Origin: Leucoraja ocellata
Taxonomy: Eukaryota
Assembly (NCBI GenBank): GCA_036785375.1
Contig: JAWMAR010003005.1
Span: 1-64,000 of the forward strand
DNA: 64,000 nucleotides
Direction: 5' to 3'
The first letter of the stretch is position 1. Each line of letters starts with the position of its first letter. Below the pieces are notes generated by a model. That model saw nothing but the letters and a program-made list of their open reading frames with translations. It made no database searches and was not told where the DNA came from. Below are positions 16,722 to 59,823 of the stretch, piece by piece. The translations under genes and the position numbers were made by a program.

Positions 16722-17740
16722 TGGCCAGCTCCTCTCTGATGCCTTCATAGTCCCCTTTGTTCAACTACATCACTGACACTTCCGATTTAACCTTCACCTT
16801 CTCAAATTGCAGATTAAAACGAATCATATTATGATCACTACCTCCAAGCGGTTCCTTTACCTCTCGTTCTCTTATCAAATCTGGTTCATTAGACAACACT
16901 AAATCCAGAATTGCCTTTTCTCTGGTCGGCTTGATTAGAAGCTGCTCTAAGAATACAGTCGGAGGCATTCTACAAACTCTCTTTCTTGGGGTCCTGAACC
17001 AAGCTGATTTTCCCAGTCCACCTGCATATTGAAATCCCCCATCACCACAGTGGCATTACCTTTGTTACATGCCAGTTTTAACTCCTGCTGCAACTTACAC
17101 CCTACATCCGGGCCACTATTTGGGGGTCTGTAGATAACACCAATTAGGGTCTTCTTGCCTTTGTAATTCCTCAACTCAATCCACAGTGACTCTACCTCTT
17201 CAGTCCCTATGTCTTCCCTCACAAGGGACTGAATTCCCTCCCTCACCAGCAGAGCTACCCCCCCCCTCCTCTGCCCACCTGCCTGACCTTTCTATAGGCT
17301 GTATAACCCTGAATATTAAGTTCCCAGGCCTGATCCTCCTGCAGCCACGTCTCAGTAATCCCCACCATGTCATATCTACCAACCTCTAACTGAGCTTCAA
17401 GCTCATCTACTTTACTTCTTGTACTTCGCACATTCATGTACAATACTTTTAATTCCTTACACATCTCACCTTTCACATCGATCCCTATTACTCTCCTATC
17501 CCTTTGTGAGCTTTCTTTCCCTTTAATTCTGGGGTCATTAACTATCCCTTTACTCCCTTTCCCTTTAACTCTGGCCCTGACTATCCCATTTGACACCCCC
17601 GCCCCTTATTGTCCCAGACTGCATCATCTGTTGGCCGTGGTGTGGTGAGGATTGAAGAGTCAGAGAACACAGTGTAGTGAGGAATGGACGGTCACAGTGT
17701 GGGGGGGTCACAAAGTATCTTTGTCGTTGGTCATCGTTAC

Positions 17741-17880
17741 CTTGACAACAGTGACGAAGGTACTGTAGAGGAAACTGATAACGAACAAGATGGCGAAGGC
17801 AGCAACTGTGAGCATATTGTCATCTCCATCCAAGTCCCCTGGCTCCACCTTCCCTTCCTCACCTGTCAATTCTGTGCCGG
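17741..17880 (-). CDS. IgW: IgW transmembrane exon TM1 (acidic spacer + TM helix)
   Basis: TTCTCATTTGTCCTGAAG acceptor (phase 1); (A)GTELTGEEGKVEPGDLDGDDNMLTVAAFAILFVISFLYSTFVTVVK with the antigen-receptor F..LF..S..YST.VT motif; AAG|GTAACG donor. Confidence 0.93.
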
Positions 17881-18900
17881 CTTCAGGACAAATGAGAAGG
17901 TGAGACAGTTAGTTTGACGCTGATGTTTTGTGAAGATCAACAACGTGTGAATAAAATGAAGACAACAGGAGGACAGGAAGACAGGAGGCTTGGGTTAGTT
18001 CCACCGTTCAATGATATGTGGAGATCTATCACCAGCTCCACTGAGCTGACTTTCCCCCACATCCATTATCATCTCGTATAGTCAAACTCTGCAATCTCAG
18101 ATATAAAATCACCTTCACACCTGGAACCAAATGCTAACTGTGGAAGGCAATTCCAAACTTCCATGAACCTCTGATAGACACAAAAAGCTGGGGTAACTCA
18201 GTTGCACAGGCAGTATCTCTGGAGAGAAGGAATGGGTGAGGTTTCACGTCGAGACCCTTCTTCAGACATCATGACCCACTTCATGTAGCATGGCTACCTC
18301 TAACTTTTAGACCCTGTACTTTGTATAAAGTTGGATTTCCATAAATCAGGGAGATCATTTGTAACCCAGGGAGCACTGTATACAACTAAAAAATAATTCC
18401 TCCTCATCTAGTTAGTTTAGTTTATTGTCACGTGTACCAAGGTACAGTGAAATGCTTTTGTTGCATGCTAACCAGTCAGCGGAAAGGCAAAACATGATTA
18501 CAAATGAGTCATTCACAGTGTATACATACATGATAAGGAATTAATGTTTAGTGCAAGGTAAAACCAGTAAAGTCCAATCAAAGATAGTCCGAGGGTCTCC
18601 AGTGAGGGAGATAATAGTTCAGGACCACTCTCTGGATGTGGTGGGATGATTCAGTTGCCTGATAACAGCAGGGAAGAAACTGTCCCTGAATGTGGAGGTG
18701 TGTAAATAGATCTTCACAGGATAATCTATTCTGTTAGCTCCCATTAACTTTGTGAAAACATCAAACAAAACTTCCTTTAGCCTTCTAAATGACAACTTGT
18801 TCAGCATCATGAAAGTAAGCATGCAGGTAGGTACAGCAGGCAGTTAAGAAAGTGAATGGCATGTTGGCATTCATAACAAGAGGAGTTGAGTATAGGAGCA

Positions 18901-30084: not shown

Positions 30085-32837
30085 TGGCCCTGTCTCACGG
30101 TGTGAGTCCACCTACGAGTGATCCCGAGTGAAAGAAAAAATCAAACTCGTGGTTGTCTACGAGATTCCAAGTTTATTTTCACGAGTTTAAACGCGTTCCC
30201 ACGTGTATGTCTAAGTTTGCCATTTACTTCTCATTTCTGCGATGTACCAAGTTACTTTCCCGAGTTACCAAGCTCCTCTCCAGAGTTACTCTTGAGCCAA
30301 CAACGACTACCGACATGTGGAAAAATCATCACATGGTAAAAATGATGTCATGCAGTTTTTTTTCACTATAAAAAGACCCAGCCTGAAGAACGATCTCGAC
30401 CCGAAACATCACCTATTTCTTTTCTCCACAGATGCTGCCTGACCAGTTGAGTTAGTCCATCATTTTGTGTCTATCTTTGGTTTAAACTGGTATCTGCAAT
30501 TCCTTCCTTCAAACTTTTAGAGCAGTTTGTTTCAAGAAACAATCCTTCCAAAATTGCTTTCAAAAGTCCACTTGAACAGCATTTGTCATTGAAAGGCAGA
30601 GGCTGTTTTGTGTCGGGAGGAACTGCAGATGCTGGTTTACACCGAAGATAGATACAAAAAGCTGGAGTAACTCAGCAGGACATGCAGCATTTCTGGAGAG
30701 AAGGAATGGGTGACGTTTCTGGTCGAGTCCCTTCTTCAGACTGAAAAAACCTTTCGATCCTTCTCTCCACAGATGCTGCCGGCTTGGCTGAGTTACTGCA
30801 GATTTTTGTGTCTAGTAAGATTATTTTATTCCCTTAATTTATCTCTCATCAAAACGTTGGTAAACTTCTAACAAAAAGAGTAGGTAAATTGAACTTTAAC
30901 GTTATTTTTTCTCCCAACAGCAAGGTCCGTAGACCAGACGGATAGCAGTGTGTGTCTCTCTACTCACCCAGTATGTCCGTCAGAACAGGGATCCCACCAT
31001 TGTGACTTAAACTGTATAAAAAGCAGCGGCTCACAACATTGCTGATTGGGCAGATCTGCTCAGAAACCACCCCTTTCACACTCACCCCAGCCCTGGGAAG
31101 TAACATTTTCAGAGCTCTACAGTCACCCAAGCCCGCCAGCGAACCGCTGAATGAAACACAAATCTCAGATGTGCTCTTCAGCAGTGGCATCCCAGAGTTT
31201 CCCAGCGCCTGGCCCAAGTTGCAATTTACACTCAGGTAAACTGATATTTTATTTAAAACCCAAATACAATTGGACCTTAATTGTAAATATGAGAATGTTT
31301 TCCTATATTGTACGGTAGACTATCATCCAGTGTAGACACCATCATTTATTGGAAAAATATGAATATACAAAAACAGGGGTTAGTTAAAAATTGGAGTCAT
31401 ATCCCATCTACAGCTCACGTTCTCTTGCTGTGTTTCTAAGAAAGGTCATTAAGGACTTATGTTATGTGTTTTTGTTGGACTGAAACCACCCCATTTACAA
31501 CATAAAGCTGTGGGTAACTTTTTAGTAGAATACTTGTGATGTAAAGAACCAGAAATTAATTTATTTTACATAACACACAAAAATAACTCTGGTCTTAATT
31601 ACCAATGCAGCTTGTGAACTTATTTGCGGGTGCGGCAGCATCTATGGAGCGAAGGAAATAGGCAACGTTTCAGGCCAAATCCCTTTTTCAGACTGAAGAA
31701 GTGTTTCAGCCCGAAACGTTGCCTATTTCCTTCACTCCATAGATGCTGCTGCACCCACTGAGTTTCTCCAGCGCTTTTGTCTACCTTTGATTTTCCATCA
31801 TCTGCAGTTCCTACTTGAACTTATTTTGTGAACTTCCCCACTGAATGCTTCCTATCTTTTGCAAGCATATTGCACGGGTTAGTACAAATACAGTTAAAAC
31901 TCTGAATAACAACATGCCATGAAGGAGCTTCCAAAGATTCATTTATCAAGAAGCTAGAGTAACTAAGCACGACAGACGGCATCTCTGGAGAGAAGGAATA
32001 GGTGATGTTTCGGGTCGAGACCCTTCTTCGATTTTAAACCTGCATCTGCAGTTCCTCCCCATTTATAATTTTGACATTTATAAAATTCCCATTTATAAAA
32101 TTATAAAATAAAATACCATTTACAACATTGTTTTGAGCAATTGTTCCCTAACGTGGACAGACTGGGTGGAAAGTGATGCCTGACAAAAATCCCCTGTATA
32201 ACGCATCAGTCTTCAATAACTGATGTTAAAGTGTCGGATATAAATCCTGAGATCGGACACCTGTCCCATATATCTGCTTCTCCATAAAAAGTGCATTAAC
32301 CCAACAGGGATTCATGGCACCGTTTCAATGTGAAAAGGTAAAGTTCTGAAGGGAACTAATTCACTCTCACAATGCAGCTTTCCCAACACTGTGTGGTTCA
32401 TTCTTTTTACCACTGTTTCTCAGATCACCGGTGAGTGCTTTTTGCTCCTTAACAGTGAATTATTAGATCACTGTAAAATGTTCCATTAAGATCTGACTAA
32501 TCTTCAACATTTCACTTTTGGCACTCAGGCCAAACCCACGAGTTACTCACGAGTCACTACAGTAAACTCACGGGCTACTACGGTATTACAAGGAGTTTAA
32601 AAGTTTCACATTTTTCCTTCAAGAGTAAATTTGACTCATGGAAATCTTTCAAAATGTTGAACATTTTTCACGAGTTAACAAGTTTCCCGAGTACCTGCCG
32701 TTAGCGTTACGAGTCGCTAAGTTACGTCCACGAGTTCCCACGTTCCCGCTACATTAATTCTACGTGATTACCACGAGTTTGATTTGTTTTTAACTCGGGA
32801 TCACTCGTGGGTGGACTCGCACCATGGGACAGGCGTT
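30085..32837. mobile_element. Non-autonomous DNA transposon with long imperfect TIRs (Harbinger-like termini), containing Penelope-like fragments
   Basis: Left GGCCCTGTCTCACGGTGTGAGTCCACCTACGAGTGATCCCGAGT... is the near reverse complement of right ...ACTCGGGATCACTCGTGGGTGGACTCGCACCATGGGACAGGC. Confidence 0.65.
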
Positions 32838-34311
32838 TAACACAAATAAAAATACATGCTGTTCAATTCTTTATTGGTATTTAATTTTAGTGCACCATAG
32901 AAAGCATTTTATCAGGATGCATCACAGCATGGTTTGGAAACAGCTCCATCCATGAAATGGCAGCGAATTGTGGTTGCAGCCCAGATCATCACACAAACCA
33001 ACCTCCCTTCCACTGACTCCATTTACATCTCATGCTGCCTCGGCAAGGCCAGCAGCATAATCAAGGACCTGTTGCACCCTGGCCACTCTCTCTTCTCCCC
33101 TCTCCCATCAGGAAAATAGGTATTGAAGTGTGAAAACACACACCTCCAGATTCAGGGACAGTTTCTTCCCAGCTGCTATCAAACAACTGAACCATCCCCT
33201 CACCAACTAGATCGCAATCCTGAGATATCATCTACCGCACTGGAGACCCTCGCACTATGTTTAATCGGACATTACCTTGCACAAAACATTCTTCCATTTA
33301 TCATGTATCTGTAGACTGTGGATGGCTTGATTGTAATTATATAGTCTTTCTGTGACTGGTTAGCACGCAACAAAAAGCATTTTCACTGTACCTCAGTCTA
33401 CGTGACAATAAACTAAACCAAACCAAACATCCCTCAGCCCACACATTAGGCATTGCATCCCCCACCATAGACCTTCCACCATCGACACTTCACGCTGCCT
33501 CAGGAAAGCAGCCAACATCATCAAGGAACCTTCACATCCCAGTCATTGTCTCTACTCCCCTCTCCAGAAGATACAAGAAGCTTGAAAGCACATAGCAGCA
33601 AATTCAAGGACAGATTTACTTTAAGCACCGACAGGCAGATGCTTAATTGTAACATTGGAATAGAAGAGTTACCAATGATGAGTTGTCTCTTTTATTCAAC
33701 ATCATCCGTGCACACCCACTGAGGACAGAGACTCCTCAAACAACCATCCCCCTTGTTGGACACAGATGTCATGTGTGGCTCAGTGGTGAGCAATGTCACC
33801 TCATGAAAGCTGCTGTCTTTGGGATGAGGCTTTAAGGAGGTGCTTCTCAGGTATATGTCAGCAATGCCACAACATGACCACAAGAGTTCTGCTCAGAGTC
33901 CTTTTATTTTTATTTTTTTTATTTATTTTTTTTTTATTAGAAGTACGGTAAATTACAATCCTACACAACACATATATCTTAATACATTTTTTGTACCGCT
34001 TCATTTTTTTTTTGAGCTTTAAGAAAAAGGTAGAAGTAAGGAAAGTAAAGAAAGTGCAAGAGATTCGTGAAGTGCAAGAGTGTTGGGAAAAGAAAGCTCC
34101 TTAGGAAAGAAGTTAGAGAAGGAAGTAAATTGAGAAAATAGACCCTAGAAAAGAAAGAAAGAGTAAATAGAAACAATCGCTCTATTATAACATTAAACTC
34201 CGCAGAAAGGGGACTACCAACCAAGTCTGTTTTTGTTGTTTTACCTCCCGTTACCAGGTCCTGATACCACTTATTTATATATTTGTTTTTTTTTTAAATT
34301 ACTATTGCACC

Positions 34312-37300
34312 TCATACTTGTAATAGGTCCAGAAACATAGACCACGTCTTTTGGAATTGGTCTGCTTTACCTGCTAGGAGGAATCTCATCTCTTCCAGAT
34401 GTAATGTTTCAAACATATTTGATATCCACATTTTTATTGTTGGTGTCGACGCATTTTTCCAGAATTTAAGTATAAGCTTTTTTCCCATTATTAGCCCGTA
34501 ATTAAATAAATTCTTCTGAAACACGTTTAATTCAGGGTTACCTTCCGATATTCCGAAGATAATCCATTCTGGTTTTGGTACCAGTTTTATTTTGATCAAT
34601 TTTGAAAAAATATCAAATATTTCATACCAGAATTTTTGGATTTTTGTACAAAAAACAAAAGAGTGCGCTATGGTAGCTTCTTGACACAGGCATTTATCAC
34701 AGATTGGTGAAACATTAGGGAAGATTTTATTTAATTTAGTTTTTGAATAATATAATCTATGTAATGTTTTAAATTGGATGAGCGTATGTCGTACGTTGAT
34801 CGAACATTTATGCACCTATATAACCATATAACCATATAACAATTACAGCACGGAAACAGGCCATCTCGGCCCTACAAGTCCATGCCGAACAAATTTTTTT
34901 CCCCTTAGTCCCACCTGCCTGCACTCGTACCATAACCCTCCATTCCCTTCTCATCCATATGCCTATCCAATTTATTTTTAAATGATACCAATGAACCTGC
35001 CTCCACCACTTCCACTGGGAGCTCATTCCACACCGCCACCACTCTCTGCGTAAAGAAGTTCCCCCTCATATTACCCCTAAACCTCTGTCCCTTAATTCTG
35101 AAGTCATGTCCTCTTGTTTGAATCTTCCCTATTCTCAAAGGGAAAAGCTTGTCCACATCAACTCTGTCTATCCCTCTCATCATTTTAAAGACCTCTATCA
35201 GGTCCCCCCTTAACCTTCTGCGCTCCAGAGAATAAAGACCTAACTTATTCAACCTATCTCTGTAACTTAGTTGTTGAAACCCAGGCAATATTCTAGTAAA
35301 TCTCCTCTGTACTCTCTCTATTTTGTTGACATCCTTCCTATAATTTGGCGACCAAAATTGTACCCCATACTCCAGATTTGGTCTCACCAATGCCTTGTAC
35401 AATTTTAACATTACATCCCAGCTTCTATACTCAATGCTCTGATTTATAAAGGCTAGCATACCAAAAGCTTTCTTTACCACCCTATCTATATGAGATTCCA
35501 CCTTCAAGGAACTATGCACGGTTATACCCAGATCCCTCTGTTCAACTGTATTCTTCAATTCCCTACCATTTACCATGTACCTGTAGTAAATGATTATCCC
35601 AGGTCTCTTTTGAGATTTTTATAGCTAATTCTTGTTCCCAATCTTTTCTAATTCCATCTGTTGTGGGTATTTCTATGTTTAAAATGATATTATATAGGTA
35701 CGATATTAAATTAGCTGATTCCGCCTTGGTCTTCATTGCTTCATCCAATAAGTCGGAAGGCATATTATGATAGTCTTTTGTGTGTTTTTTCAGATAATCA
35801 CAAATTTGAAGATATTTAAAATATTGGTTATTTTTCAAATTATATTTCAGTTGTAGTTGTTGAAATGATAGTAAATTCCCCAATTCATACAGATCTTCGA
35901 GCGTTTTGATTCCCATTCTTTCCCATTGTATAAATGATTTGTCTATGATTGATGGTTTAAACAATGGATTATTGACTATTGGTATTAAAAGAGATAGGTT
36001 TCTTAATTTTAAATTCTGTTTTATTTGTTTCCATGTTCTTATTGTGTTATGTATAATTGGATTTTTATTATAATTTTTATTATTCAAATTTATTGGTGAG
36101 AGGATGGTCGCTCCTATATTACTCGGGGAGCAGTCCCCTTTTTCCATTACCATCCAGTCCGCCTGCTGTGCAGAATTGTCCAGCAGGTGAATCATATTTT
36201 TAATATTTACTGCCCAATTATAATACATAAAATTAGGGAGCGCTAGACCCCCCAGCTCTTTTCGTTTATTAAGGTGTGCTATTTGTATTCTATGGGATTT
36301 ATAATCCCATATAAAATTTGTAATGTCTGAGTCCAATTTTTTGAAAAACTTTTTTGGGAGATATATAGGTATTGATTGAAATAGGTATAGAATTTGTGGT
36401 AAGAAAATCATTTTAATAGCATTTATTCTGCCTATTAAGGACATCGGAAGTGTTTTCCAGAATTTAATCAGATTATTCAATTTCTTGAGTAAGGGATTAT
36501 AATTGGCTTTAAACATATCCTGGTAATTTCTAATAATTTCAATTCCCAAATATTTGAATTTTTCTGTAGCTATTTTAAAGGGAAATTTCCGAAGATGTGT
36601 TGAGTCTTTTGGTTTTATCGACATAATTTCACTTTTGTTCCAATTTATTCTATATCCCGAAAAGGATCCAAAGTCTTCAATTAAATTTAATATGTTTGGT
36701 ATACTAATTTGTGGTTTTGTGATGTACAGTAGTACATCATCGGCATATAGGGATATTTTATTCTTTGAGTATTTTGTATTATAACCATAAATATCCGGAT
36801 GTGTTCTTATTTTTTCAGCAAGGGGTTCAATTACCAAAGCAAATAACAGCGGTGATAATGAGCATCCTTGTCTATTGCCCCTTGATAGTTCAAATTTCGA
36901 GGATAAAATATTATTAGTTAATATTCTAGCCGTAGGTTTGTTATATAATAGTTTTATCCATGCGATAAAGTTTTCTCCCAATTGGAATTTTTGCAATACT
37001 TTAATCATATAATCCCATTCTACTTGATCAAACGCTTTTTCTGCGTCCAGTGAGATAATAGATGACTCTTGGTCATGAGATTTTTGTGAGTGCATTATGT
37101 TAAGCAAACGTCTCAAATTATTGAATGAGTGTCTCTTAGGTATAAATCCTGTTTGATCTCCATTTATTAATCTACTAACGTACCTGCTTAGTCTACTGGC
37201 TAGTGTTTTCGCTATTATTTTTTGATCCGTATTTAACAAAGCAATAGCTCTATATGAGCCTGGTTCTTCTATGTTTTTATCTTTTTTAAGTATTAATGTG

Positions 37301-38876
37301 ATCGTTGATTCTGCTAAAGTTTCGGGTAAGCTTTGCTCTTTAAAAGCGTATGTATACATTTTCTGTAATCGTGGGTAACTATATCGTAAAAGGCTTTATA
37401 GAATTCACTACTGAATCCGTCTGGTCCTGGTGTTTTGCCGTTCTTTAGTGTTTTTATTGTGTCTTCTATCTCCTTAGAAGTAATTGTTGCTCCCAGTTCC
37501 TCTTGTTCCCTCAATTCTAATTTTGGGAGGTTACAATTTTCCAGAAATTCTGAAACTTTATTATTATCTATTGACGTTTTAGATGTATATAGATTTTCGT
37601 AAAATTGAGCAAATCTTTTATTGATATCCTTGGGTAATGTTAATAATTCCCCACTATCTGATTTAATCTTTAGTATTGCATTCTCTTTTTCCCGTTTTTT
37701 CAATTGGCGTGCTAAAAGTTTGTGTGGTTTGTCCCCGAATTCAAAGTGTTCTTGTTTTGTAACTTGGAATAATGTTATAACTTTCTCTGACAATAATTTA
37801 TTCAGCTTGAATTTCAATAATAGGATTTTATTATGTTTATCCATAGTTGGATCTTTAGCATTATCTGTATCTAATTGTTTTATTTGTTCTTCTAAATGTC
37901 TTTGTTCTTTCTTATTCTTTTTATTTTGATAAGCTTGAAATGAAATAATGACTCCTCTAATAAATGCTTTAAAGGATTCCCATAATAGCGTGGGGGATAT
38001 ATCTGGTGTATCATTTATCTCAAAGAATAAGTCCATCTGTTTTTTTAGATATATACTCCCTTGTGGGTCTTTTAAAAGTTGCGAATTAAACCTCCAGAAC
38101 GATTTATTCATAGACATTCCTTCTAATTTTAAAACAAAGGTTAAAGGAGAGTGATCTGAAATCGCATTAATGTGGTATTTAGGATTCATAGTGTGTGTAA
38201 TTAATTTTGTATCCACAAGAAAATAGTCTATCCGTGAATATGTTTTATGCACCGTTGAATAGAACGAGTAGTCCCTTCCCGTCGGATTTGCAATCCTCCA
38301 TACATCTGCTATATTTGTGTTTTCCATATATGTATGTAAGAGTTCACTGGTTTTAGATTTCATATTACCTTTTTGTTTTTGCATCGATTTATCTAAATAA
38401 GGGTCTAAAACACAGTTGAAGTCTCCTCCAATTATAACATTTTGATAATTAAATTCTGCAATTATATTCAGAATTTTATTAAAAAATTGAGGGTTATCAA
38501 AGTTGGGCGCATATATATTTACCAGCGTAATTGGCGTATTATTGATCTCTCCTGCTACTATAAGATATCTCCCTTCCTTATCTGAAATAGTATTCTTTGA
38601 TTTAAATGGAATTCCTTTACGAATAATAATTGCAGTACCTCTGGATTTAGAAGTGAATGAAGAGTGAAATGTTTGGCCTATCCAGTTAGCCCTCAGTCTC
38701 GTCTGATCTTGATGTTTAAGATGCGTTTCCTGTAGGAACGAAATGTCCGTGTTGTATGCTTTCAACTGAGCTAGTATCTTGCCCCTTTTAATAGGTTCAT
38801 TAATACCCCTTATATTCCAACTACATAGTGTGACTCCTCCCATTTTCCTTTGATTGTCGTCATACATTTTTACCAA
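34312..38876 (-). pseudogene. L1 ORF2 (APE + RT + Cys knuckle), broken by a 1-nt frameshift (~37372) and a CR1 insert
   Basis: SWNIRG, LQETH, IYAPN, GGDFN, SDH; LDAEKAFD, QGCSLSP, YADD; CDKC...H. Confidence 0.9.
34821..35575 (-). mobile_element. CR1-like 3' fragment inserted in L1 ORF2
   Basis: RDLG, RPNLEY, RGDLIE motifs; (TATATGGT)n tail; imperfect TSD ATG(C/T)ACCT(A/G)TA. Confidence 0.88.
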
Positions 38877-39803
38877 TTTTAATGACCTTACTTACTATGG
38901 TGCATCCATACCTCAGGACTCTGGTTATTTTGGGAGCATTTATATTATAGACTTTCTTGGTAGTTCCCGCGATTGTCCTTGAAAAAAAAACACATAAATG
39001 TGACATATTGTGATTAAAACAAAAAGTATATAGAATAAATGTACGGTGTCTGGGTTTCCGACACCGTAGTGAGTGGCCCACTCGTCTGTGGGATACGACA
39101 TCAATATTGCTTCCGGCGTAGCTGTTATGAGGTTAGCCCCACTGACTTTATTACTCATAACCTAGGGGGTAGGTACCGTTTCCAAATCAGTTCTATTTCA
39201 CCCCATTGCAGTATATATATATATATATATATGTTTCATTCCGACTCATCAAATCTAATCAAGTATTCAGTTACATATATTCCTCTCTCTTTATCTCTTA
39301 ACTATTTGTAATTGGTTTTAGTATTGTTAAAAGTGAGCTGTTCGTTGAAAGGGTTAAACAGAGTCAGGCTCCTGGAATTAAGCCAGGTGCCTGAGTCTCT
39401 TCCCCTCCCCACTCGAGCTGCGGAACCTGTGAGATTACCATGTTGTCTGCGTTATAACACATTTTTATCAATATCAGTTTATGTATTAGTATTGTTAGTT
39501 ATTAATTACTAATAATTCTCTATACTTTGTAAGAGTCTGTAAGAGTATGTAAGCCATGTGATGTTTTTCAGTCTCTCTCAGCTTCAGCAGAACTGCATTC
39601 TTCTGTTATCAATGTTTCCTGGTTTGAGCATCGCATGTCCTTGAATTAAATTCGAGAGAAGATTATAATGTCTAGACATGTCTCGTGGAAAATCTGTTGC
39701 GAATAATCATTTTTAAAGCTTGGTGTTATTCACTTTTTTCAATTTTCTACTAATATTCTTGTTGGGGGAATAAGCACATTAATTAGTTCATGACGTCTGG
39801 TGA

Positions 39804-40835
39804 TCAATCTTCTTTTGTTGCTGCCTTAGCCACGATTTCTTGAGCGTATTTAAGGGATTCTACCGGGTTAGTGAATGTTTTTGAGATTCCCTTGAAAGTG
39901 ATACGCATCCTAGCCGGATAAAACACTCCACATATGACGCCCTTGACACCGTAGAGAGCTTCTCTGGTCTGTGAGAACTTTCTTCTCTTTTGCACAATCT
40001 CATAAGGGTAGTCCCGTAGAAGTTTAATAGAATCATTTCCATACATCATCTTCTCTCCGTGTTTAATTTTTTTCATCAGCGCTTCCACTGTTGGGATATC
40101 CCGAAGTTTGACTATGATCTGTCGTGGGTAGGCTTGTTCTCCTTGAAATCTTGGTTTAAATCTAGGTAGTCGATGTGCTTCTTCAATTACTGGTGCCTCA
40201 GGTAAATTGAGTACATGTTTGATTAAATTGGCAGTGAACTCACGAGCGTTTTCCCCCTCAGCTCCCTCTTTCACTCCACGTATTCGTATATTTTGACGTC
40301 TTGAGCGAGCTTCTAGTTCAACACATTTATCAGATACTTTTGTAAATTGGCTCTTGAGGCTGTCTAATTCTAACTTCATTGCCTCCATTTCTCCAGCCAT
40401 CTCTTCCACAACAGCTTCCAAATCTTTCACTGCAATTGCATTTGCGGAAATAGTTTCATGCACAGCCTCAAACATCTTTGTGGACTCTTCTGCCACCTTA
40501 GTAATTTTCCCCGTTAGCTCTTCTTGCACATCATCAACTCTTTTTTGCAGAGCACCAATGCCAGCGAGTATTTTTTCATTACCAGCATTAATGGATTGTA
40601 TGTTTTCCATCAAGTTTAAATTTCCAGCTTTCACATCATTTTTCAAATCTCTTACCGAGTTCTTTAATTCCTCCATTTCAGTTTTCTCTTTTGTGATCAA
40701 CTCAGTCTTAGATCGTGTAGCCATTCCAGAATCCACTCCAGAGGTTAGTTTTGCAGTTTCTTTATGTTCCTGAGTCTTCAGCAGGTGTTTTGTCACTTTC
40801 CTCTGTGGGCTCTGACCTGGAGATGTATTTTTCAT
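39804..40835 (-). CDS. L1 ORF1 protein (coiled coil + RRM-like), intact 343 aa
   Basis: LEARSRRQNIRIRGVKE, EEAHR, PRQIIVK, YPARMRI motifs. Confidence 0.9.
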   Translation of the reverse strand: MKNTSPGQSPQRKVTKHLLKTQEHKETAKLTSGVDSGMATRSKTELITKEKTEMEELKNSVRDLKNDVKAGNLNLMENIQSINAGNEKILAGIGALQKRVDDVQEELTGKITKVAEESTKMFEAVHETISANAIAVKDLEAVVEEMAGEMEAMKLELDSLKSQFTKVSDKCVELEARSRRQNIRIRGVKEGAEGENAREFTANLIKHVLNLPEAPVIEEAHRLPRFKPRFQGEQAYPRQIIVKLRDIPTVEALMKKIKHGEKMMYGNDSIKLLRDYPYEIVQKRRKFSQTREALYGVKGVICGVFYPARMRITFKGISKTFTNPVESLKYAQEIVAKAATKED

Positions 40836-41490
40836 TTAAAATGCCTTTCCCTCCGTTAAATCCACGGCGCTTACTGATGACGTCATCAGCACCGCGACAT
40901 GAAATTCCGGTAAGTCTTTAAAATCGGTCCCGACCTCCAGACCCGATTTTAACGCGAAAAATCGCGATTTATTTCAGCGGAGCTAAAAGATTTGCGACTG
41001 CTAGCAAAGCATGCCGCCACCGGAAGCCCTGCTCAGAGTCCTGAGCTAATATTTATCCTGAAACCAAACAGCTAAACACAGGTGGGCTGTGGGAGAGCTG
41101 GGAAGGGGAGGGGAAAGAGGGAGAAAGCAAGCACTACCCGACGCAGGAGATCTGCCCAGATTTGGTTTGCCGTGTGTGAGCTGGCATCAGGTACATTGTC
41201 ACAGCTGGGCAAGGAAAGACCACGGACCAATCAGTTCACCTTGTGTCACCCTGACGGTCACACGGCACAGTGATAATGGAGTTAACGACCACAATCAATC
41301 TCTGTCTTCAACTGGTCCAGGCGTGGGTGTGAGAACACCCAATGGTGGAAGGTTTTGGACACATTGATCCAACAACAACTATTTCTCCCAGAATGTGCTT
41401 CTCCTAGAATGTGCACACATCACATCCCAAGCTACCCATGTACTGCCACCCAAAACACAGACACGCACACAAAACCTTTTTCACATCACA

Positions 41491-41496
41491 TTTATT
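41491..41496 (-). terminator. Poly(A) signal for the long secreted IgW
   Basis: AATAAA on minus, ~295 nt after the CH6 stop. Confidence 0.65.
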
Positions 41497-41788
41497 GATC
41501 TTGTATTGATACATTGACACATACATAGATTTAATACCTCGTGTGATCCCATACAGGGTTAAAATCTGTTCAAGCACGGCAGAAATAGTTCTGTAAATGT
41601 ATCCAGAAGCTCAGACATTTGTGGTGAATCATGGCTGTGGCTTCATTTATATCTCGTGTGGCATTATGTTTTTAATGATTTACAAAGGTTCACATTTTGA
41701 TGATGTATTAGGGAACTAACCCATCATCCTCTGGGTCAGTTAATACATCCAGAAATGAACAAAACAAGTGTTTGAGGAATGAATCATG

Positions 41789-42174
41789 TTACACACAAGA
41801 TTTAAAGCTGTCAGTCAGAACAAGTGAGACATTGACCAGGGTGGGTTTGCTGTGAGATTTATTGATGCTTCTGAATAGACTGGTTGTGATGGATCCATGT
41901 CCCACAACACAGGAGAAGGTGGTGCCACTGTTCCAGTCCTCTGGAGAAACCTTCAACTGACTGGTCATGGTGTTCCACCCATTCCTGGTGTCCTTGGTCA
42001 CGGGCTGGTTCACGATCCCTGTCTTCAGAAGGGTGTCGTTGGCCATCCAGGCCACATAGATGTCTGCAGGAGAGAATTTGGTGACCAGGCACGTCAAGGT
42101 GGCCGTCTTATCCGTCTCCACCTCATCCAATGAAGGGGGGAGGAGGTAGACTTGAGGACGTATCTCAACTCCAT
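41789..42174 (-). CDS. IgW: IgW CH6 exon with contiguous secretory tailpiece
   Basis: CTGTTCCCAG acceptor; DGVEIRPQVYLLPPS...TLTCLV...VAW...W.SG..FSCVVGH...KSHSKPTLVNVSLVLTDSFKSCV* (NVS sequon, penultimate Cys). Confidence 0.95.
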
Positions 42175-42369
42175 CTGGGAACAGAGAGAACCTGAGTTAG
42201 ACTGAATCTGTCGATAATTCTGTACTTACACAATACATTCCAATCTTATACTGACATGGACCCCGTTTACATCCTGAGGGACCTCAGTTCACCTGGAACT
42301 AAAGGCTTTTCCTTTCTGTTCATTGTAGGGATGTATGGAATAGAAATCATGCCTCTGGTGCATTTTACA

Positions 42370-43110
42370 GGGCAGCATGGTGGCGCAGCGGTAGAATTGC
42401 TGCCTACAATGCAAGAGACATGGGGTTTGATCCCAACTATGGCTGGTGCCTGCATGGAGTTTGTACGTGACCATGTGGGTTTTCTCCGGGTGCTCAGGTT
42501 TCCTCCCACACTACAAAAATGTACATGTTCTCTGTATGGCGGGACTGTCATATGCTGAGAAAATGGAGTGGCTGGGCTTGTATACTCTGGAATTTAGATG
42601 GATGAGAGGGAATCTGATCGAAACATAAGATTATTAAGGGTGTGGACACGTTAGAGGCAGGAAACATGTTCCCGACATTCAGGTAGTCCAGAACCAGGGG
42701 CCACAGTTTAAGAATAAGGGTTAAACCATTTTGAACAGAGATGAGGAAACACTTTTTCACACAGAGAGTTGTGAATCTGTGGAATTCTCTGCCTCAGAGG
42801 GCGGCGGAGGCTGATTTTCTGGATACTTTCAAGAGAGAGCTAGATAGGGCTCTTAAAGTTAGTGGAGTCAGGGGATATGGGGAGAAGGCGGGACCGGGGT
42901 ACTGATTGGGGATGATCAGCCACGATCACATTGAATGGAGGTGCTGGCTCGAAGGGCCAAATGGCCTACTCCTGCACCTATTGTCTATTGTCTATTGTTT
43001 GTAGGCTAATTGACTTGGTTTAATTGTAAATTGTCCTTGGTATGTGCTGGGTAATGTTAGTGTGCGAGGATCGCTGGTTGGCGTGGACTTGATGGGCCGA
43101 AGGGCGCTGT
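42370..43110 (+). mobile_element. tRNA-derived SINE split by a CR1 3' fragment (~42531-42998)
   Basis: GGGCAGCATGGTGGCGCAGCGGTAG head and GGTTTCCTCCCAC core; CR1 piece ends in (CTATTGT)n; SINE resumes TTGTAGGCTAATTG. Confidence 0.7.
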
Positions 43111-43544
43111 ATCTCTAAACTAAACTGAACTATAGCTTCCAGTGAGTTTAAATTGGTTAGTTAATCAACAGGAACCACTGAATGCTGAGACTCTACAGAA
43201 AATGGAACTCAGTCCTTGGACCAGCCTGTTTCTGCGCTGTCTGTTCCATCTCCCCTTCTGCTTAAATGATTGGCTGGTGTTTGCCTCAAGCTCCCTGCCC
43301 TTCCAGTCCTGACTCAGTCTGTATCTCGGCTTGTGAAAGTTGCAATTCCCTCTCCCTCGATTCTATCTAAGCAACTCACGCTGAGGGAATAAGTGTGGTA
43401 ATGGGCGAGGCTGTCGTGGTGACTTGGGACATTAATGATGTGGTTATTCAGCTGAGTTTAATCTTATTTTAACACTCTCTGACCATCTGTAAGTCCACCC
43501 AATATCCATTAGATATCCACTGGAGATCAGAAAAATCCAAAAGA

Positions 43545-45125
43545 ATCTGAGAAAAACTATGAAATTCTTAATCGGATTGATGAAGGGGAGCCAGTATATG
43601 TATTGTATCTAGACTTTCAGAAAGCCTTTGATAAGGTCCCGCACGGGAGACTGGTGACTAAAATTAGAGCACATGGTATTGGGTAGGGTGTTGCCATAGA
43701 TAGAAAATTGGTTGGCAGGCAGGAAGCAAAGAGTAGGAGTGAACAGGTCCTTTTCAGAATAGCAGGCAGTGGCGAGTGGAGTGCCGCAAGACTCGTTGCT
43801 GGGGCCGCAACTGTTTACCATATATATTAATGATTTGGAAGAGGGAATTAGGAGTAACACTAGCAAGTTTGCGGATGACACAAAGCTGGGTGGCAGTGTG
43901 AACTGTGAAGAGGATGTTAGGAGGTTGCAGGGTGACCTGGACAGGTTGAGTGAGTGGGCAGATGCGTGGCAGATGCAGTATAATATAGATAAATGTGAGG
44001 TTATCCACTTTGGTGGCAAAAACAAGGGGACAGATTATTATCTCAATGGGGTTAGGTAAGGGGGATGTACAACGAGACCTGGGTGTCCTTGTACAATGGT
44101 CACTGAAAGTTAGCGTGCAGATACAGCAGGCAGTGAAGAAAGCTAATGGAATGTTGGCCTTCATAACAAGAGGGTTTCAGTATAGGAGTAGAGAAGTTCT
44201 TCTGCAGTTGTATAGGGCTCTTGTACGACCACATCTAGAGTATTGAGTACAGTTTTGTCTCCTAATTTGTGGAAGGACATCCTTGCGATTGAGGCATGTG
44301 AAGTGTTGGTTCACGAGATTGATCCCTGGGATGGCGGGACTGTCATATGAGGAAAGATTGAAAAGACTAGGCTTGTATTCACTGGAGTTTAGAAGAATGA
44401 GGTGGGATCTTATAGAAACATATAAAATTATAAAAGGACTGGACAAGCTAGAAGCAGGATAAATGTTCCCAATGTTGGGCGAGTCCAGAACTAGGGCTCA
44501 GTCTTAGAATCAAGGGGAGGCCATTTAAGACTGAGGTGAGAAAAAACTTTTTCATCCAGAGAGTTGTGAACTTGTGGAATTCCCTGCCACAGAGGGCAGT
44601 GGAGGCCAAATCACTGGATGGATTTAAGATGCAGTTAGATGGAGCTCTAGGGGCTAGTGGAATCAAGGGATATTGGGATAAGGCAGGCATGGGTTATTGA
44701 TTGGGGACGATCAGCCATGATCACAATGAATGGTGGTGCTGGGTCGTAGGGCCGAATGGCCTCCTCCTGCACCTATTTTCTATGTTTCTATGAACAGGTG
44801 AGGCAGAGGAAGAATGTTTCAGATATTGGTGAATCCAGGCCAGGAGATGACAGTCTGAGGTGAAGGTGTGTAGGTGTGAGAGGGGGAGAAATGTCTTCAC
44901 ACAGACAATGGTGAACCTGGACATTCTCTGCCACAGACAGCACTGAAGCCCAATTATTAGATATATGCAAGAATGAGTTGGATCCAGTTCTTAGGGTAAA
45001 GGGATCAAGGGATATGGAGAGAATGCAGGAAGAGAGTACTGAATATGGATGATCAGCCGTGCTCATATTGAATGTCTGTGCAGGATTGAAGGGCTGAATG
45101 GCCTGCTCCTGCAATTATTTTCTAT
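43545..45125 (+). mobile_element. CR1-like RT fragments in the CH5-CH6 intron
   Basis: LDFQKAFD, GVPQ, FADD, RPHLEY motifs; same subfamily as 13611-17600. Confidence 0.85.
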
Positions 45126-45190
45126 GCTGGATGTGATAAGTGTGTCCATTTGCTCAGATCAGACTTGCACCAACCTCTGTCAACACGTAC

Positions 45191-45511
45191 CTGTCAGCTT
45201 CTGCAAAGATCTGCTCTCCGGTGTTGGCAAACTCTTGTCCTCCACAACACAGGTGTACAGAGCCCCACTCTCCCACTCTGCAGCGGGGACCGTCAGTCCG
45301 CTGGTGATGGTGTCTGTACCTCCGATCCTCTCTACACCACGAGTTGTCACCCCGTCTTCTCTCTTCATTTCATTCACTTGCCAGGTGACCCTGAATCCCT
45401 CTAAATCACCGTGAACCACCTTACACAGAATGGTGGCTGTCTTGTTGATCCAGATCTCTTCGAAGGAAGGTTTGCTTAAAGTGACCGAGGGGCGGGTATC
45501 TGAACATTCAT
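45191..45511 (-). CDS. IgW: IgW CH5 exon
   Basis: 321 nt, TTTCTCCCAG acceptor, ACAG|GTACGT donor; DECSDTRPSV...EEIWINKTATILCKV...VTW...W.SG..YTCVV. Confidence 0.95.
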
Positions 45512-45947
45512 CTGGGAGAAATCACATTTATTATGTCATCGTTCCCTGATGGAGCAGCTTGCCACTGAAGTATTTTGTGCACATCTCCACTGAATGATAT
45601 GCTGGTCCCATCAACATCAGGGAGATTTATCTACATTGATGTAGGAATGAAGCTTCCTATTGATCCCACAAGGAAACCGTGCTAAACAATGTGAATTAAC
45701 AAGTTGACATTTACATTACTTGACAGTTTTGTGATCACTGAACCTGCTACCATCTATTTACTGAATCAAATGTATAAAATTCCCTCTGAGGAGAGGCAAA
45801 TCGAGCTAATGTTTGAGGTCAAAATGTTCAGTTCAGTTTAGTTTATTGTCACGTGTACCGAGGTACAGTGAAAAGCTTTTGTTGCGTGCTAACCAGTCAG
45901 CAGAAAGTTCTTCACTTTATATTATAAAATAGAAGCAGAGGCATTAT

Positions 45948-45953
45948 TTTATT
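45948..45953 (-). terminator. Candidate poly(A) signal for the CH4-linked secretory exon
   Basis: AATAAA on minus, ~185 nt after the stop at 46139. Confidence 0.5.
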
Positions 45954-46138
45954 TAGTCGCGAGTGGTCCGGAGTAGGATGAAGAAAGGTCTCGACTCAAA
46001 GCCTCACCTCCCCATGTCCTCCAGGGATGCTGCCTGACCTGCTGAGTTACTCCAGCATATTGTGTCCTTTCATTTAGTCACAACTGTTTAAATGCATTTT
46101 GTATCCAAGAGGTGTAACTAAACTCTCCTGCTGCTTTG

Positions 46139-46263
46139 TCAGAATGTAGTGTGTTGCAGCCGGCCTGTTCCAGAGGCTGCTACACATTGCCCAGACTGAC
46201 TGTAGCCACTGGGGCAGGGAGAGAGCTGCTCTGCTGGACACCCTGTCACAGCTGAGGCACCCA
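46139..46263 (-). CDS. IgW: Candidate second secretory exon after CH4 (41 aa, 3 Cys)
   Basis: CTTTCCCTCTGCCTTTGTACTTAATGCCAG acceptor, phase 1; VGASAVTGCPAEQLSPCPSGYSQSGQCVAASGTGRLQHTTF*; downstream AATAAA. Confidence 0.6.
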
Positions 46264-46507
46264 CTGGCATTAAGTACAAAGGCAGAGGGAAAGACCGTTT
46301 TGAAGAAGAGTAATGTGGATCTCCACCGTGTCTGGCCTGTCGACTGGCTTGGATTGCCCTCAAGTTACTAAAGCAATGTCAAAGATACAATTATTTCTGT
46401 GGCAAGATTCACTTACAAGCCCACAACAGGACTGCACCATGTTACAATGCTGCCCATGTGTGGCACAGTTTACAATGTGGAGAATGGAGTGAATCCCAGG
46501 AGCCTAC

Positions 46508-46825
46508 CTTGGATGTTCTTCACATCCTTCGTGATGATGGTGTTGGAGGCGCGATGATACACTGTACAATTGAAACGTGAGCCTGACTTCCAATCCTCTG
46601 TACTCATGGTCAGGAAGTGGCTGGCACTGAAAGTGCCCGCCTGCTCCAGAGCAGTTGGTGCAGCGCTGGTGTTGTTGGAGATCAGGGCACCGTCTTTACT
46701 CCAAGTGACGTTGATGAGGTCTGGGTAGAATCCAGAGACCACACACTCGAGGGTGACCTTGTGGCTATGCTTGGTCTCTTCGTGTGTTTGAAGCAGCAGT
46801 CTGACTTCAGGTTTATTTGGCTCAA
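46508..46825 (-). CDS. IgW: IgW CH4 exon
   Basis: 318 nt, CTGTTCCAG acceptor, CAAG|GTAGGC donor; VEPNKPEV...VTLECVVSGFYP...VTW...W.SG..FNCTVYH. Confidence 0.95.
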
Positions 46826-46859
46826 CTGGAACAGAGCAAAATAAATGTTAAACTCTCTC

Positions 46860-47325
46860 ATAGAGACATAGAGTGATACAGTGTGGAAACAGGCCCTTCA
46901 GCCCAACTTGCCCACCCCGGCCAACATGTCCCAGCTACATTAGTCTCTCCCGCCGTGTTTGGTACATGTCCCTCAAAACCTGTCCCTGTCTGTTTTTTTA
47001 ATGTTAGGTTAGTCCCTGCCTCAACTACCTCCTCTGGCAGCTTGTTTCATACATCCACAACCCTTTGCGTGAAGAAGTTACCCCTCAGATTCCTATTAAA
47101 TCTTTCCCCCTTCACCTTAAACCTATGTCCTCTGGTACTCAATTCACCTACTCTGGGCAAGAGACTCTGTGCATCTATCCAATCTATTTCTCTCATGATT
47201 TTATACACCTCAATAAGATATTCCCTCATCCTCCGACACTCCAAGGAATAGAGTCCCAGCCCACTCAACCTCTCCCTATAGCTCTCTAGCCCTGGCAACA
47301 TCCTTGTAAATCCTCTCTGTACCCT
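46860..47325 (-). mobile_element. CR1-like 3' fragment in the CH3-CH4 intron
   Basis: YRERL..LGLYSLE...TRGH...NFFTQRVV. Confidence 0.8.
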
Positions 47326-47373
47326 CTCTCTCTCTCTCAGTCACACCCATTTAATCACTGATCTGTTGCCCAC

Positions 47374-47676
47374 CTTTGTTATGGTTGGTCCGCGCTGACA
47401 CTGGTGAGGATGATGAAGATTGTTGGGCGAAGCACACAAACTCCACTCCGCTGGTCCACTCCTCGACGCTGGTCCGGAGTTCACTGGTCACAGGGTTTTG
47501 GGTGCCTTCATGGCTCGGTGTACGGGTCATAACTCCTTCACTTCTCTCCTTTCCTCCCACCTTCCAGGTGAGATGGACCTGGCTCGGATCACTACAGATT
47601 ACTGAACACACCAGCGTAGCGGTCTTGTTGATCCAAATCTCTTTCATGCCAGGATTTTGAATGAAGACGGCCAATG
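47374..47676 (-). CDS. IgW: IgW CH3 exon
   Basis: 303 nt, CCACAG acceptor, AAAG|GTGGGC donor; ALAVFIQNP...EIWINKTATLVCSVIC...LTW...EEWTSGVEFVC. Confidence 0.95.
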
Positions 47677-47732
47677 CTGTGGATCAGAAATGGAAAAGTT
47701 CAGAATTTTAGTTGAGACTCATCTGTTACTAA

Positions 47733-50040: not shown

Positions 50041-50168
50041 CTACTTTATTTCACACTTTCCTGCCCAACAATGATACTGCTGGGTAGAACCATCTGAGAA
50101 TAACACATTGAGATTGCTCTGGTAGATGAACTTCGGCAGACACTTCGAACAGCCGGGACATTTTCCAC
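50041..50168 (-). CDS. IgW: IgW short-form (IgX) Cys-rich secretory exon
   Basis: TTCCATTTCCAG acceptor, phase 1; GGKCPGCSKCLPKFIYQSNLNVLFSDGSTQQYHCWAGKCEIK* (5 Cys). Absent from the ORF track. Confidence 0.92.
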
Positions 50169-50404
50169 CTGGAAATGGAAGATTAATTGATTTAAATGTT
50201 AAGAGATTTTTACCTCCTGTGTTGAGGAAAGAGGAGATTCACATATTCCCAGTCTGTGTCCTCAGTATTTATCAGCATAAGATTATGCCGACCACGATAA
50301 ACTGCTTCACTTTGTCCAGGATCAGACAATACTTTAAAGAGTGTGGAGATGAGTTCAAAAATAATCCAGGCACTGACATTTCAATGAAAGGGAAAGGGCA
50401 ATCT

Positions 50405-51606: not shown

Positions 51607-51906
51607 CCTCTTGATATCTCATGTTGATCTTGTCGCTGAAGCCGGAAGGTGCGTGGGTCACTTCACAAGTATATTCCTGTTTGTTGGTCCATTCCTCCAC
51701 ATTCAACGGCAGGTAAGCAACTGTTTCAAATCCACCGTTAGTTCTCGGAGTGGATGGGAGAACGACGCCCGCTTGATTAAGTCCAGCTTTTTTCCAGGAA
51801 ACTTTAATATTGTCAGGAGAGAATCCAGATATCATGCAGCCCAGGACAGCAGTTGTTTGATTGTGGAGAACCTCCGGAGATGGAACAAGGGGGATGAGCT
51901 GTGGGG
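51607..51906 (-). CDS. IgW: IgW CH2 exon
   Basis: 300 nt, GTTACAG acceptor, GAGG|GTGAGT donor; APQLIPLVPS...VLGCMISGFSP...VSW...EEW...YTCEVTH. Confidence 0.96.
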
Positions 51907-53092: not shown

Positions 53093-53401
53093 CTTGAGGC
53101 TTCTGGATCTCCGTTTTCACCATGTTGTCCGGCTTGTATCCTGACATGCAGTAGTAGACGGTTTTCCTGTTCCAATCTGCTACAGAGACTCGCAGCAAGC
53201 TGCTCATTGTGTACTTCTTGTTTTGTCCCAACACTGGTGGGTACTTTGTTATTCCATTGTTGATGACCCCACTGCTGGTGGACCATGTCTGACTGATGAC
53301 CTCAGGCAGGTAGTCCTTGACCAGACAGAGGATGCTGATCTCTTGTCCAGATTCCGTGTTGCAGGAAGAGGTGATGTGGACTGAAGGCAAAACCACATCC
53401 T
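53093..53401 (-). CDS. IgW: IgW CH1 exon
   Basis: 309 nt, TTCCATTTCAG acceptor, CAAG|GTTAGT donor; EDVVLPSVHITSSC...ILCLVKDYLP...TW...W...YYC; the early Cys is the likely light-chain link. Confidence 0.96.
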
Positions 53402-58493: not shown

Positions 58494-58541
58494 CTGAAGT
58501 CACTGTCAGCGAGGTTCCTGCACCCCAGTAGTCAAGATAGT
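58494..58541 (-). CDS. IgW: IgW JH segment
   Basis: YLDYWGAGTSLTVTS (WGxG) with TCAG|GTAAGA donor. Confidence 0.97.
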
Positions 58542-58580
58542 CACACTGATTCATTTTCCCACTCAGTCAGTACAATAACT
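58542..58580 (+). other. JH recombination signal sequence, 23-bp spacer
   Basis: CACACTG (58542-58548) + 23 nt + ACAATAACT (58572-58580). Confidence 0.92.
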
Positions 58581-58906
58581 CCACTCGCCCTCCACATCCA
58601 ATAATCCCAGCAAAGTGTCAACGTGAACTCTGCCCGGACCAGGAGCAGCCGCTTCCTGCATTTCCATCCCAATCTCCGTCCTTGTTCAACCTCTGGTGTG
58701 AATAATAGAGGCATTTTTGCCGTCTGCTGCCAACGGCTCTGGCCGTCCCTCACAAACACAATCGCCTCCTTTCGGGCTTTTAACCGGCCAGAAATGGACA
58801 TTTCTTCCCTGCAGTGCGAGCCAGGCTTCAGGGATTGGACTTTGGCAAGCAGCAATGTTCAATGGATGGAGACAGACTGCGCTGCGGACGCTCATTTGTC
58901 GGGGGC

Positions 58907-58972
58907 AGTTTTTGTTCAGCTCTCCACCGCCGTGGGCCAGTATACACGGTGATTCACCGCCGCTCACAAACT
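58907..58972 (-). other. IgW: DH segment (TATACTGGCC, 58935-58944) flanked by two 12-spacer RSSs (D2 type)
   Basis: + strand: AGTTTTTGT-12-CGCCGTG-GGCCAGTATA-CACGGTG-12-TCACAAACT. Confidence 0.88.
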
Positions 58973-59299
58973 GCGCTACCACATCCAGCCCGAAATCCAA
59001 CACTGGCCAGAGTGGGCAACGGTTTAATTAAAGCCCCGTCCATGTGTGTCCATGTGTCCCACACAGCAGTGTCCAGTCTCGGCAATTGCAGCCCTGTAGT
59101 GGACAGGAGATAACCCACCGCGACTGTCACCGTGCCTCGACCCACAGCGGCTCCTCGCTGTTTGTGTTCCCACATCTCCAGTGGAACTTGTTCCCTGTGC
59201 CAGATGATGCACTCTGGATCTGGTTTATATCCACGGGTCCCGAGGAAAGGCGGCGGCGGCAGCGCCCAGAGACGTGATTTAAAGCGTTTGGCTGCGGCA

Positions 59300-59337
59300 G
59301 GTTTTTGTATTGAGGAAGTCCCATCTCTCACACTGTG
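59300..59337 (-). other. RSS 3' of the V(D) exon, 22-bp spacer
   Basis: Perfect CACAGTG (59331-59337) + 22 nt + perfect ACAAAAACC (59300-59308). Confidence 0.95.
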
Positions 59338-59645
59338 CCACCCGTATTGTCTCGCACAGTAATAGGTGGCCGTGTCGGCCAGACTCAGGTTGGTCATTTG
59401 GAGATAGACATTGCTGCTGTCCTTGGAAACCTCGAATCGGCCGCTGAAGGCAGGCGCGTATAGTTTGTCGCCACCACCCCATATCACCGCCACCCACTCC
59501 AGCCCTTTCCCGGGGACTTGTTTCACCCAATGCACGGCGTAGTCGCTGAGGCTGAACCCGCTGGTTACACAGGTCAGTTTGAGGGACTCTCCGGGCTTTG
59601 CCACCTCGGTCGGTTTCTGATTCAGCACGACCGCGGATCGAACGC
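59338..59645 (-). CDS. IgW: IgW VH exon with 12 extra nt after YYCAR (probable germline-joined V-D1)
   Basis: TTTATTTGCAG acceptor; GVRSAVVLNQKP...LTCVTSGFSL...WVKQ.PGKGLEW...DTATYYCAR-QYGW, then the heptamer. Confidence 0.96.
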
Positions 59646-59777: not shown

Positions 59778-59823
59778 CTGGCAGACAGGACAGAAGGAGA
59801 CAGAGATAAGCAGCGACCCCCAT
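59778..59823 (-). CDS. IgW: IgW leader exon
   Basis: 46 nt; MGVAAYLCLLLSCLP(G); CCAG|GTGGGT donor; phase 1 matches the V exon. Confidence 0.93.

Follow-up and report, generated by a model that had tools for sequence, protein, structure and literature searches.

The gene described here, on the minus strand of the 64,000-nt stretch of DNA that was analysed (the window), very probably carries a real join between the V and D1 segments of an intact skate IgW heavy-chain cluster, a join most likely present in the germline. It is a gene of a known type. Partial germline joins have been published and are frequent in this genome, so a single further gene is a modest addition. It adds an IgW example whose unjoined parents are close enough for the joint to be read at the level of single bases. 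The greater value lies in the family as a series: five of its ten IgW clusters are joined, one pair has an added second join, and samples may differ. If the reading is true, it offers a direct test of whether RAG remains active in the germ cells of cartilaginous fish, a view current but unproven, and also a way to ask whether partly joined heavy-chain genes are used.

Layout and isotype of the cluster

Read along the minus strand, the cluster begins with a leader exon (MGVAAYLCLLLSCLP; 59778-59823) that has a GT donor and an open VH exon (59350-59645) that has lost its own recombination signal sequence with a 23-nt spacer (23-RSS). V ends in TGT GCG AGA (Cys-Ala-Arg; 59358-59350) and is followed at once by 12 nt, CAATACGGGTGG (59349-59338), a remnant of D1 that reads QYGW and whose last 10 nt match the D1 core of the paralogues. 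Then comes the 3' signal of D1 (59300-59337), in which a 22-nt spacer separates the heptamer CACAGTG (59337-59331) from the nonamer ACAAAAACC (59308-59300), both of them perfect. An exact heptamer and nonamer spaced by 22 or 23 nt is found just once in the window, where the chance expectation is 0.01 and at least one match turned up in 1 of 100 shuffles.

The single free D, D2, is the 10-nt TATACTGGCC (58944-58935), with a 12-nt spacer on each side. Its 3' RSS lies at 58907-58934; its 5' RSS (58945-58972, plus strand) has a degenerate nonamer, TCACAAACT, with 3 mismatches, which is identical in all nine IgW clusters that retain that nonamer. JH (YLDYWGAGTSLTVTS; 58494-58541) has a GT donor and a signal sequence with a 23-nt spacer (58580-58542, plus strand). 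The distances between signal sequences, counted by hand, are 327 and 326 nt, and the layout is VD1-D2-J. An earlier note on this DNA had described the 12 nt, the 22-nt spacer, the one free D between 12-nt spacers and gaps of about 330 nt, all of which are confirmed. The 12-nt spacers 5' of D1 in the unjoined paralogues and 5' of D2 in the window (58972-58952) differ at a single base (11 of 12 agree), which would fit an origin of the two D segments by duplication or conversion.

Downstream, still on the minus strand, lie CH1 (53093-53401), CH2 (51607-51906), the Cys-rich secretory tail of short IgW (approximately 50044-50169), CH3 to CH6 with the long-form secretory tail, all open (ORF spans within 41792-47683), and a transmembrane exon (approximately 17730-17885) with a spacer like that of the transmembrane form of Squalus IgW, P0013. 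There are six C exons, every exon from leader to transmembrane is open, and the cluster is apparently intact. Three additional pairs of CH3/CH4-like exons (29830-26660 and 20525-19440, minus strand) sit between the long secretory tail and the transmembrane exon; in the last CH4-like exon Phe replaces the first Cys.

The gene is a skate IgW (IgX) heavy-chain cluster, from a skate near Leucoraja erinacea, an assignment made because its CH1 is 96% identical to the little-skate Ig heavy-chain cDNA protein P0007 and 56% identical to Squalus IgW P0013. The source name of P0007 reads "Ig heavy chain" only; I take it to be IgX, and its Cys-rich tail is consistent with this. The gene resembles P0007 and P0012, of Raja eglanteria, in CH2, in the Cys-rich short tail and in the six-domain long form as well as in CH1, while ARQY does not open the CDR3 of either cDNA protein (AAAMGGSIYWLEY; ARSPYMGGDELDY). 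The features by which section 3.2 of PMC5192425 describes IgW are the number of C exons, the long tail, the Cys-rich short tail and the transmembrane exon, and the window cluster has at least six C exons with a long secretory tail, a Cys-rich short tail after CH2 and a transmembrane exon. The CH1 identities and this exon set bear out the IgW isotype that had been claimed. A search of PDB with CH6 returned mainly IgM and IgA chains and left the isotype undecided.

The joint and its unjoined relatives

The V-J region, the flank of the D1 nonamer and CH1, each searched against the animal's own genome, all led to one and the same family. CH1 has ten matches, and the D1 3' flank accompanies nine. 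Five of the ten IgW clusters are unjoined, V(23)-(12)D1(22)-(12)D2(12)-(23)J: three close ones (two on C1015, one on C1442) and a diverged pair on C128, which serves as the outgroup. Joins are present in the other five, as VD1-D2-J in the window, C481:1456k and C1442:194k, as VD1-D2J in C2945, and as V-D1J in C481:1218k.

In unjoined clusters V ends TGTGCGAGAGA directly before its own heptamer and 23-RSS, and D1 in the close ones is ACTATATGGGTGG or ACTATACGGGGGG. Compared with C1015, 278 nt between V and D1 are missing from the window, both inner signal sequences among them, and the fusion of V to D1 that the earlier note proposed is thereby borne out. The stretch that runs from the D1 heptamer as far as J, 808 nt, aligns without gaps to the three close unjoined clusters, with 799, 795 and 796 matches (98-99%), and it is because of this identity that a heavy-chain joint can here be read base by base; PMC2193156 describes those of the horn shark as hard to read. 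The note had named its own refuter, that V segments normally end this way in a cluster type with a single D. There is practically no chance of that. The 12 nt, the spacer and the 3' flank align with D1 and its flank in the unjoined paralogues, whose V ends differently and keeps its 23-RSS, and nothing was found in its favour.

Both break ends lie 0-3 nt from the two heptamers, on the coding side. V is short by 2-3 nt, and the joint holds 0-2 untemplated bases. Either the ends met on a one-base overlap, A, and a T in D1 subsequently became A, or two bases (CA) were added once D1 had lost 3 nt to trimming; the data fit either route. C1442:194k and C2945 share a second type of junction, longer by 2 nt, whose ends overlap by one base and which has no base added. 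Break ends at heptamers are the expected result of RAG cleavage, an established mechanism, and germline joints have been reported with little activity of TdT, according to passages of PMC2193156; the 0-2 untemplated bases of the window joint agree with the latter report. An ordinary deletion, made without RAG, could in principle have taken out the spacer between V and D1, and the family has undergone others, for example a 2.1-kb loss of CH2 with a 3-nt overlap and the shortening of the V end in C481:1218k. It is a very improbable source of this joint, given how close both ends are to heptamers on the coding side, a precision repeated in the second IgW junction, in the D2-J join of C2945 and in four joins of another VH family.

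I propose that an ancestral V-D1-D2-J cluster was cut by RAG in a germ cell, presumably at the 23-RSS of V and the 12-RSS of D1, and that the V-D1 join was then likely inherited. RAG action in germ cells is the likely maker of the joint, as judged by the breaks at heptamer ends and by the account in PMC2193156. In a B cell, the fused gene would be complete after two joins, where an unjoined one takes three. Its remaining 22/12 and 12/23 pairs are predicted still to recombine, giving a CDR3 that starts CARQY(G) and is variable in the remainder; the Trp codon, as the coding end of D1, would often be trimmed on rearrangement. The earlier note also held that V and D1 had been joined in frame. That carries no information, because D1 is free of stops in all three frames (TIRV, LYGW, YTG) and it is the two later joints alone that decide the frame of J. 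For the same reason of three open frames, I rejected the frame as a mark of selection.

Inherited or somatic origin

The junction of the window recurs in C481:1456k. Over the 808 nt the two copies match at 803 positions; outside that stretch they differ at 5 positions in leader and V and at 14 of the 520 nt upstream. Their identity is about 97% upstream and 98.8% across V-J. The contig that holds the window is short (96.6 kb), and its copy and that on C481 may be two haplotypes of one locus.

Sequencing reads bear on the same question. Run X1, a DNA-like run, covers promoter and intersegment DNA and has no spliced J-CH1 end among its listed contigs; it may come from the assembly's own sample. 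One of its contigs, 62 nt long, spans 59318-59379 with zero differences at a depth of 7; a contig of unjoined D1 in the same run has a depth of 6 and one of the second junction type a depth of 3, depth being no measure of copy number. A single clone of B cells would hardly reach the depth of the X1 junction.

Could the assembly have captured a somatic intermediate from a lymphocyte? Such VD-D-J intermediates exist in nurse-shark thymocytes, as PMC2435157 describes, and have the same configuration of segments, yet they are specific to a cell, whereas the window junction is found in two assembled copies and at an ordinary short-read depth. Two other DNA-like runs speak for capture. X3, another sample under the same species label, and X4, under a different one, have no bridging contig listed, so that one of the three DNA-like runs checked at the junction, X1, contains one; among the matches listed, every X3 and X4 contig over 59348 has the unjoined letter, so that inheritance across individuals can only be presumed. 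X3 does have contigs identical to the V end of the window, at a depth of about 40. Against capture stand the identical junction in two contigs with differing flanks, its depth in a short-read run, similar to that of unjoined copies, and the scarcity of N bases in the window joint, unlike the somatic joints observed. A somatic origin is unlikely because the C481 copy has other flanks and a DNA-like run holds the exact junction, and I regard capture as quite improbable. The germline origin claimed in the earlier note is thus the most likely one, by virtue of the second copy and run X1; where it finds no support is in X3 and X4, with their unjoined letter only.

The somatic joints come from X5 and X15, which are RNA-like runs with spliced J-CH1 ends. 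In the two complete V-to-J joints of these runs, V is separated from J by 22 and 39 letters, which by my reading are largely untemplated. No CARQYG joint is found among the contigs listed for X5 and X15, where the V joints are of other kinds and rich in N; this says nothing about silence of the gene, because contigs drop rare forms. X24, a run of raw RNA with another species label of which about 5% was read, gave a single read on the junction stretch, with the unjoined letter.

X1 also has a V-to-J joint (58533 to 59350, with 3 letters between) in one contig of depth 3.7 whose short side has 26 letters. No match to it was found in the assembly. It would place a stop codon after Arg. Together with the X3 and X4 contigs, this joint hints, if weakly, at differences in joins between animals.

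History of the joins and related systems

CH2 bears on how often V and D1 were joined in this family. It is found in four of the ten clusters: the window, C481:1456k and both on C128. The six others (two each on C1015 and C1442, C2945, C481:1218k) lack it through one common deletion, equivalent to 53042-50916 in the window, so that within the close family only the two pre-joined clusters, the window and C481:1456k, retain it. Two separate V-D1 joins are favoured, unless recombination shuffled parts, because this deletion groups the second joined pair, C1442:194k and C2945, with three unjoined clusters, and I consider two joins probable. A single join ancestral to all four V-D1-joined clusters, after which the window lost 2 nt and changed one base, has a lesser but appreciable chance. 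The two junctions differ by no more than that, an AU test does not reject a single clade of the four (p = 0.42), and the clusters look mosaic: window positions 31700-44000 are 99.2-99.6% identical to C481:1218k and C1015, more than they are to the window's 5' twin on C481, which suggests that clusters have undergone recombination or conversion with one another. A single ancestral join has to contend with the breakpoint that the second pair has in common with unjoined clusters, with the CH2 that the first pair retains as does the C128 outgroup, and with counts of differences. In leader and V the pairs differ from each other by 28-31 nt, as much as they do from the unjoined clusters (22-28), and just 3 sites unite all four, whereas 14 unite the window pair and 9 the second pair. 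Trees from four flanking blocks and their concatenation (from which C481:1218k was excluded because it is without the D1-D2 block) resolve the pairs and are star-like beyond.

Two clusters went further. C2945 (L009, G000:C2945, about 51.6-52.0 kb) is VD1-D2J, with a stop codon in CH1, and has the same V-D1 junction as C1442:194k, from which its V differs at 7 positions; its D2-J would most simply be a second join made after duplication, in a stepwise manner. C481:1218k (L013, G000:C481, about 1218.3 kb) is V-D1J: at most one base of D2 is left, and the end of V is shortened too. A direct join of D1 to J there would be a pairing of signals with 22- and 23-nt spacers.

That germ-cell RAG activity is recent, and the IgW joins still segregate between animals, is a tentative idea and on the doubtful side. 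It draws on the contrast between X3 and X1: the CARQYG join is in the assembly and X1, unlisted in X3, and the V-to-J join of X1 is absent from the assembly. If joins do segregate, IgW is a stepwise series (unjoined, VD1-D2-J twice, VD1-D2J, V-D1J) in which germline V(D)J recombination could be measured.

The first report of partially germline-joined heavy-chain clusters in elasmobranchs is said to be that of Kokubu in 1988, and VD-J and VD-DJ genes were reportedly obtained from little-skate DNA in 1990. In the available parts of PMC5192425 and PMC4279169, elasmobranch Ig clusters are described as joined in the germline partly (VD-J, VD-DJ) or fully, and, with PMC2193156, partial heavy-chain forms also include VD and VDD. 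The window gene resembles these in that coding ends are joined at signal sequences, inner signal sequences are gone, unjoined relatives exist and RAG is held responsible; unlike them it is IgW, the published partial joins being given, in those parts, for IgM or for Ig clusters generally, with no IgW named. No description of a germline-joined IgW cluster was found in the literature listings and passages covered, and I claim no first report; the available part of PMC12227049 has nothing on germline joins. In being N-poor, recent, repeated and set among close split genes, the joins are also like those of the nurse-shark NS4 (kappa) light chain as passages of PMC2193156 present them. The NS4 joins are complete VJ, recur unchanged in other sharks and are expressed by pups, whereas the window join is a partial heavy-chain one, seen in this assembly and in run X1.

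A second VH family of this genome, which I take to be IgM-like, has V and D1 joined in 4 of the 16 loci with the given D1 3' signal, the junctions all different, and a set of 13 loci that overlaps these includes two VD1-D2-J and two VD1D2-J. The V-D1 and V-D1-D2 joins of that family are at L060, L061, L066, L072, L024 and L028, each with its own junction. In Rhinoraja longicauda, the gene model P0005 reads YYCATDYVGGTV, like a V fused to D1, through the heptamer, and so suggests a V-D1 join in another skate.
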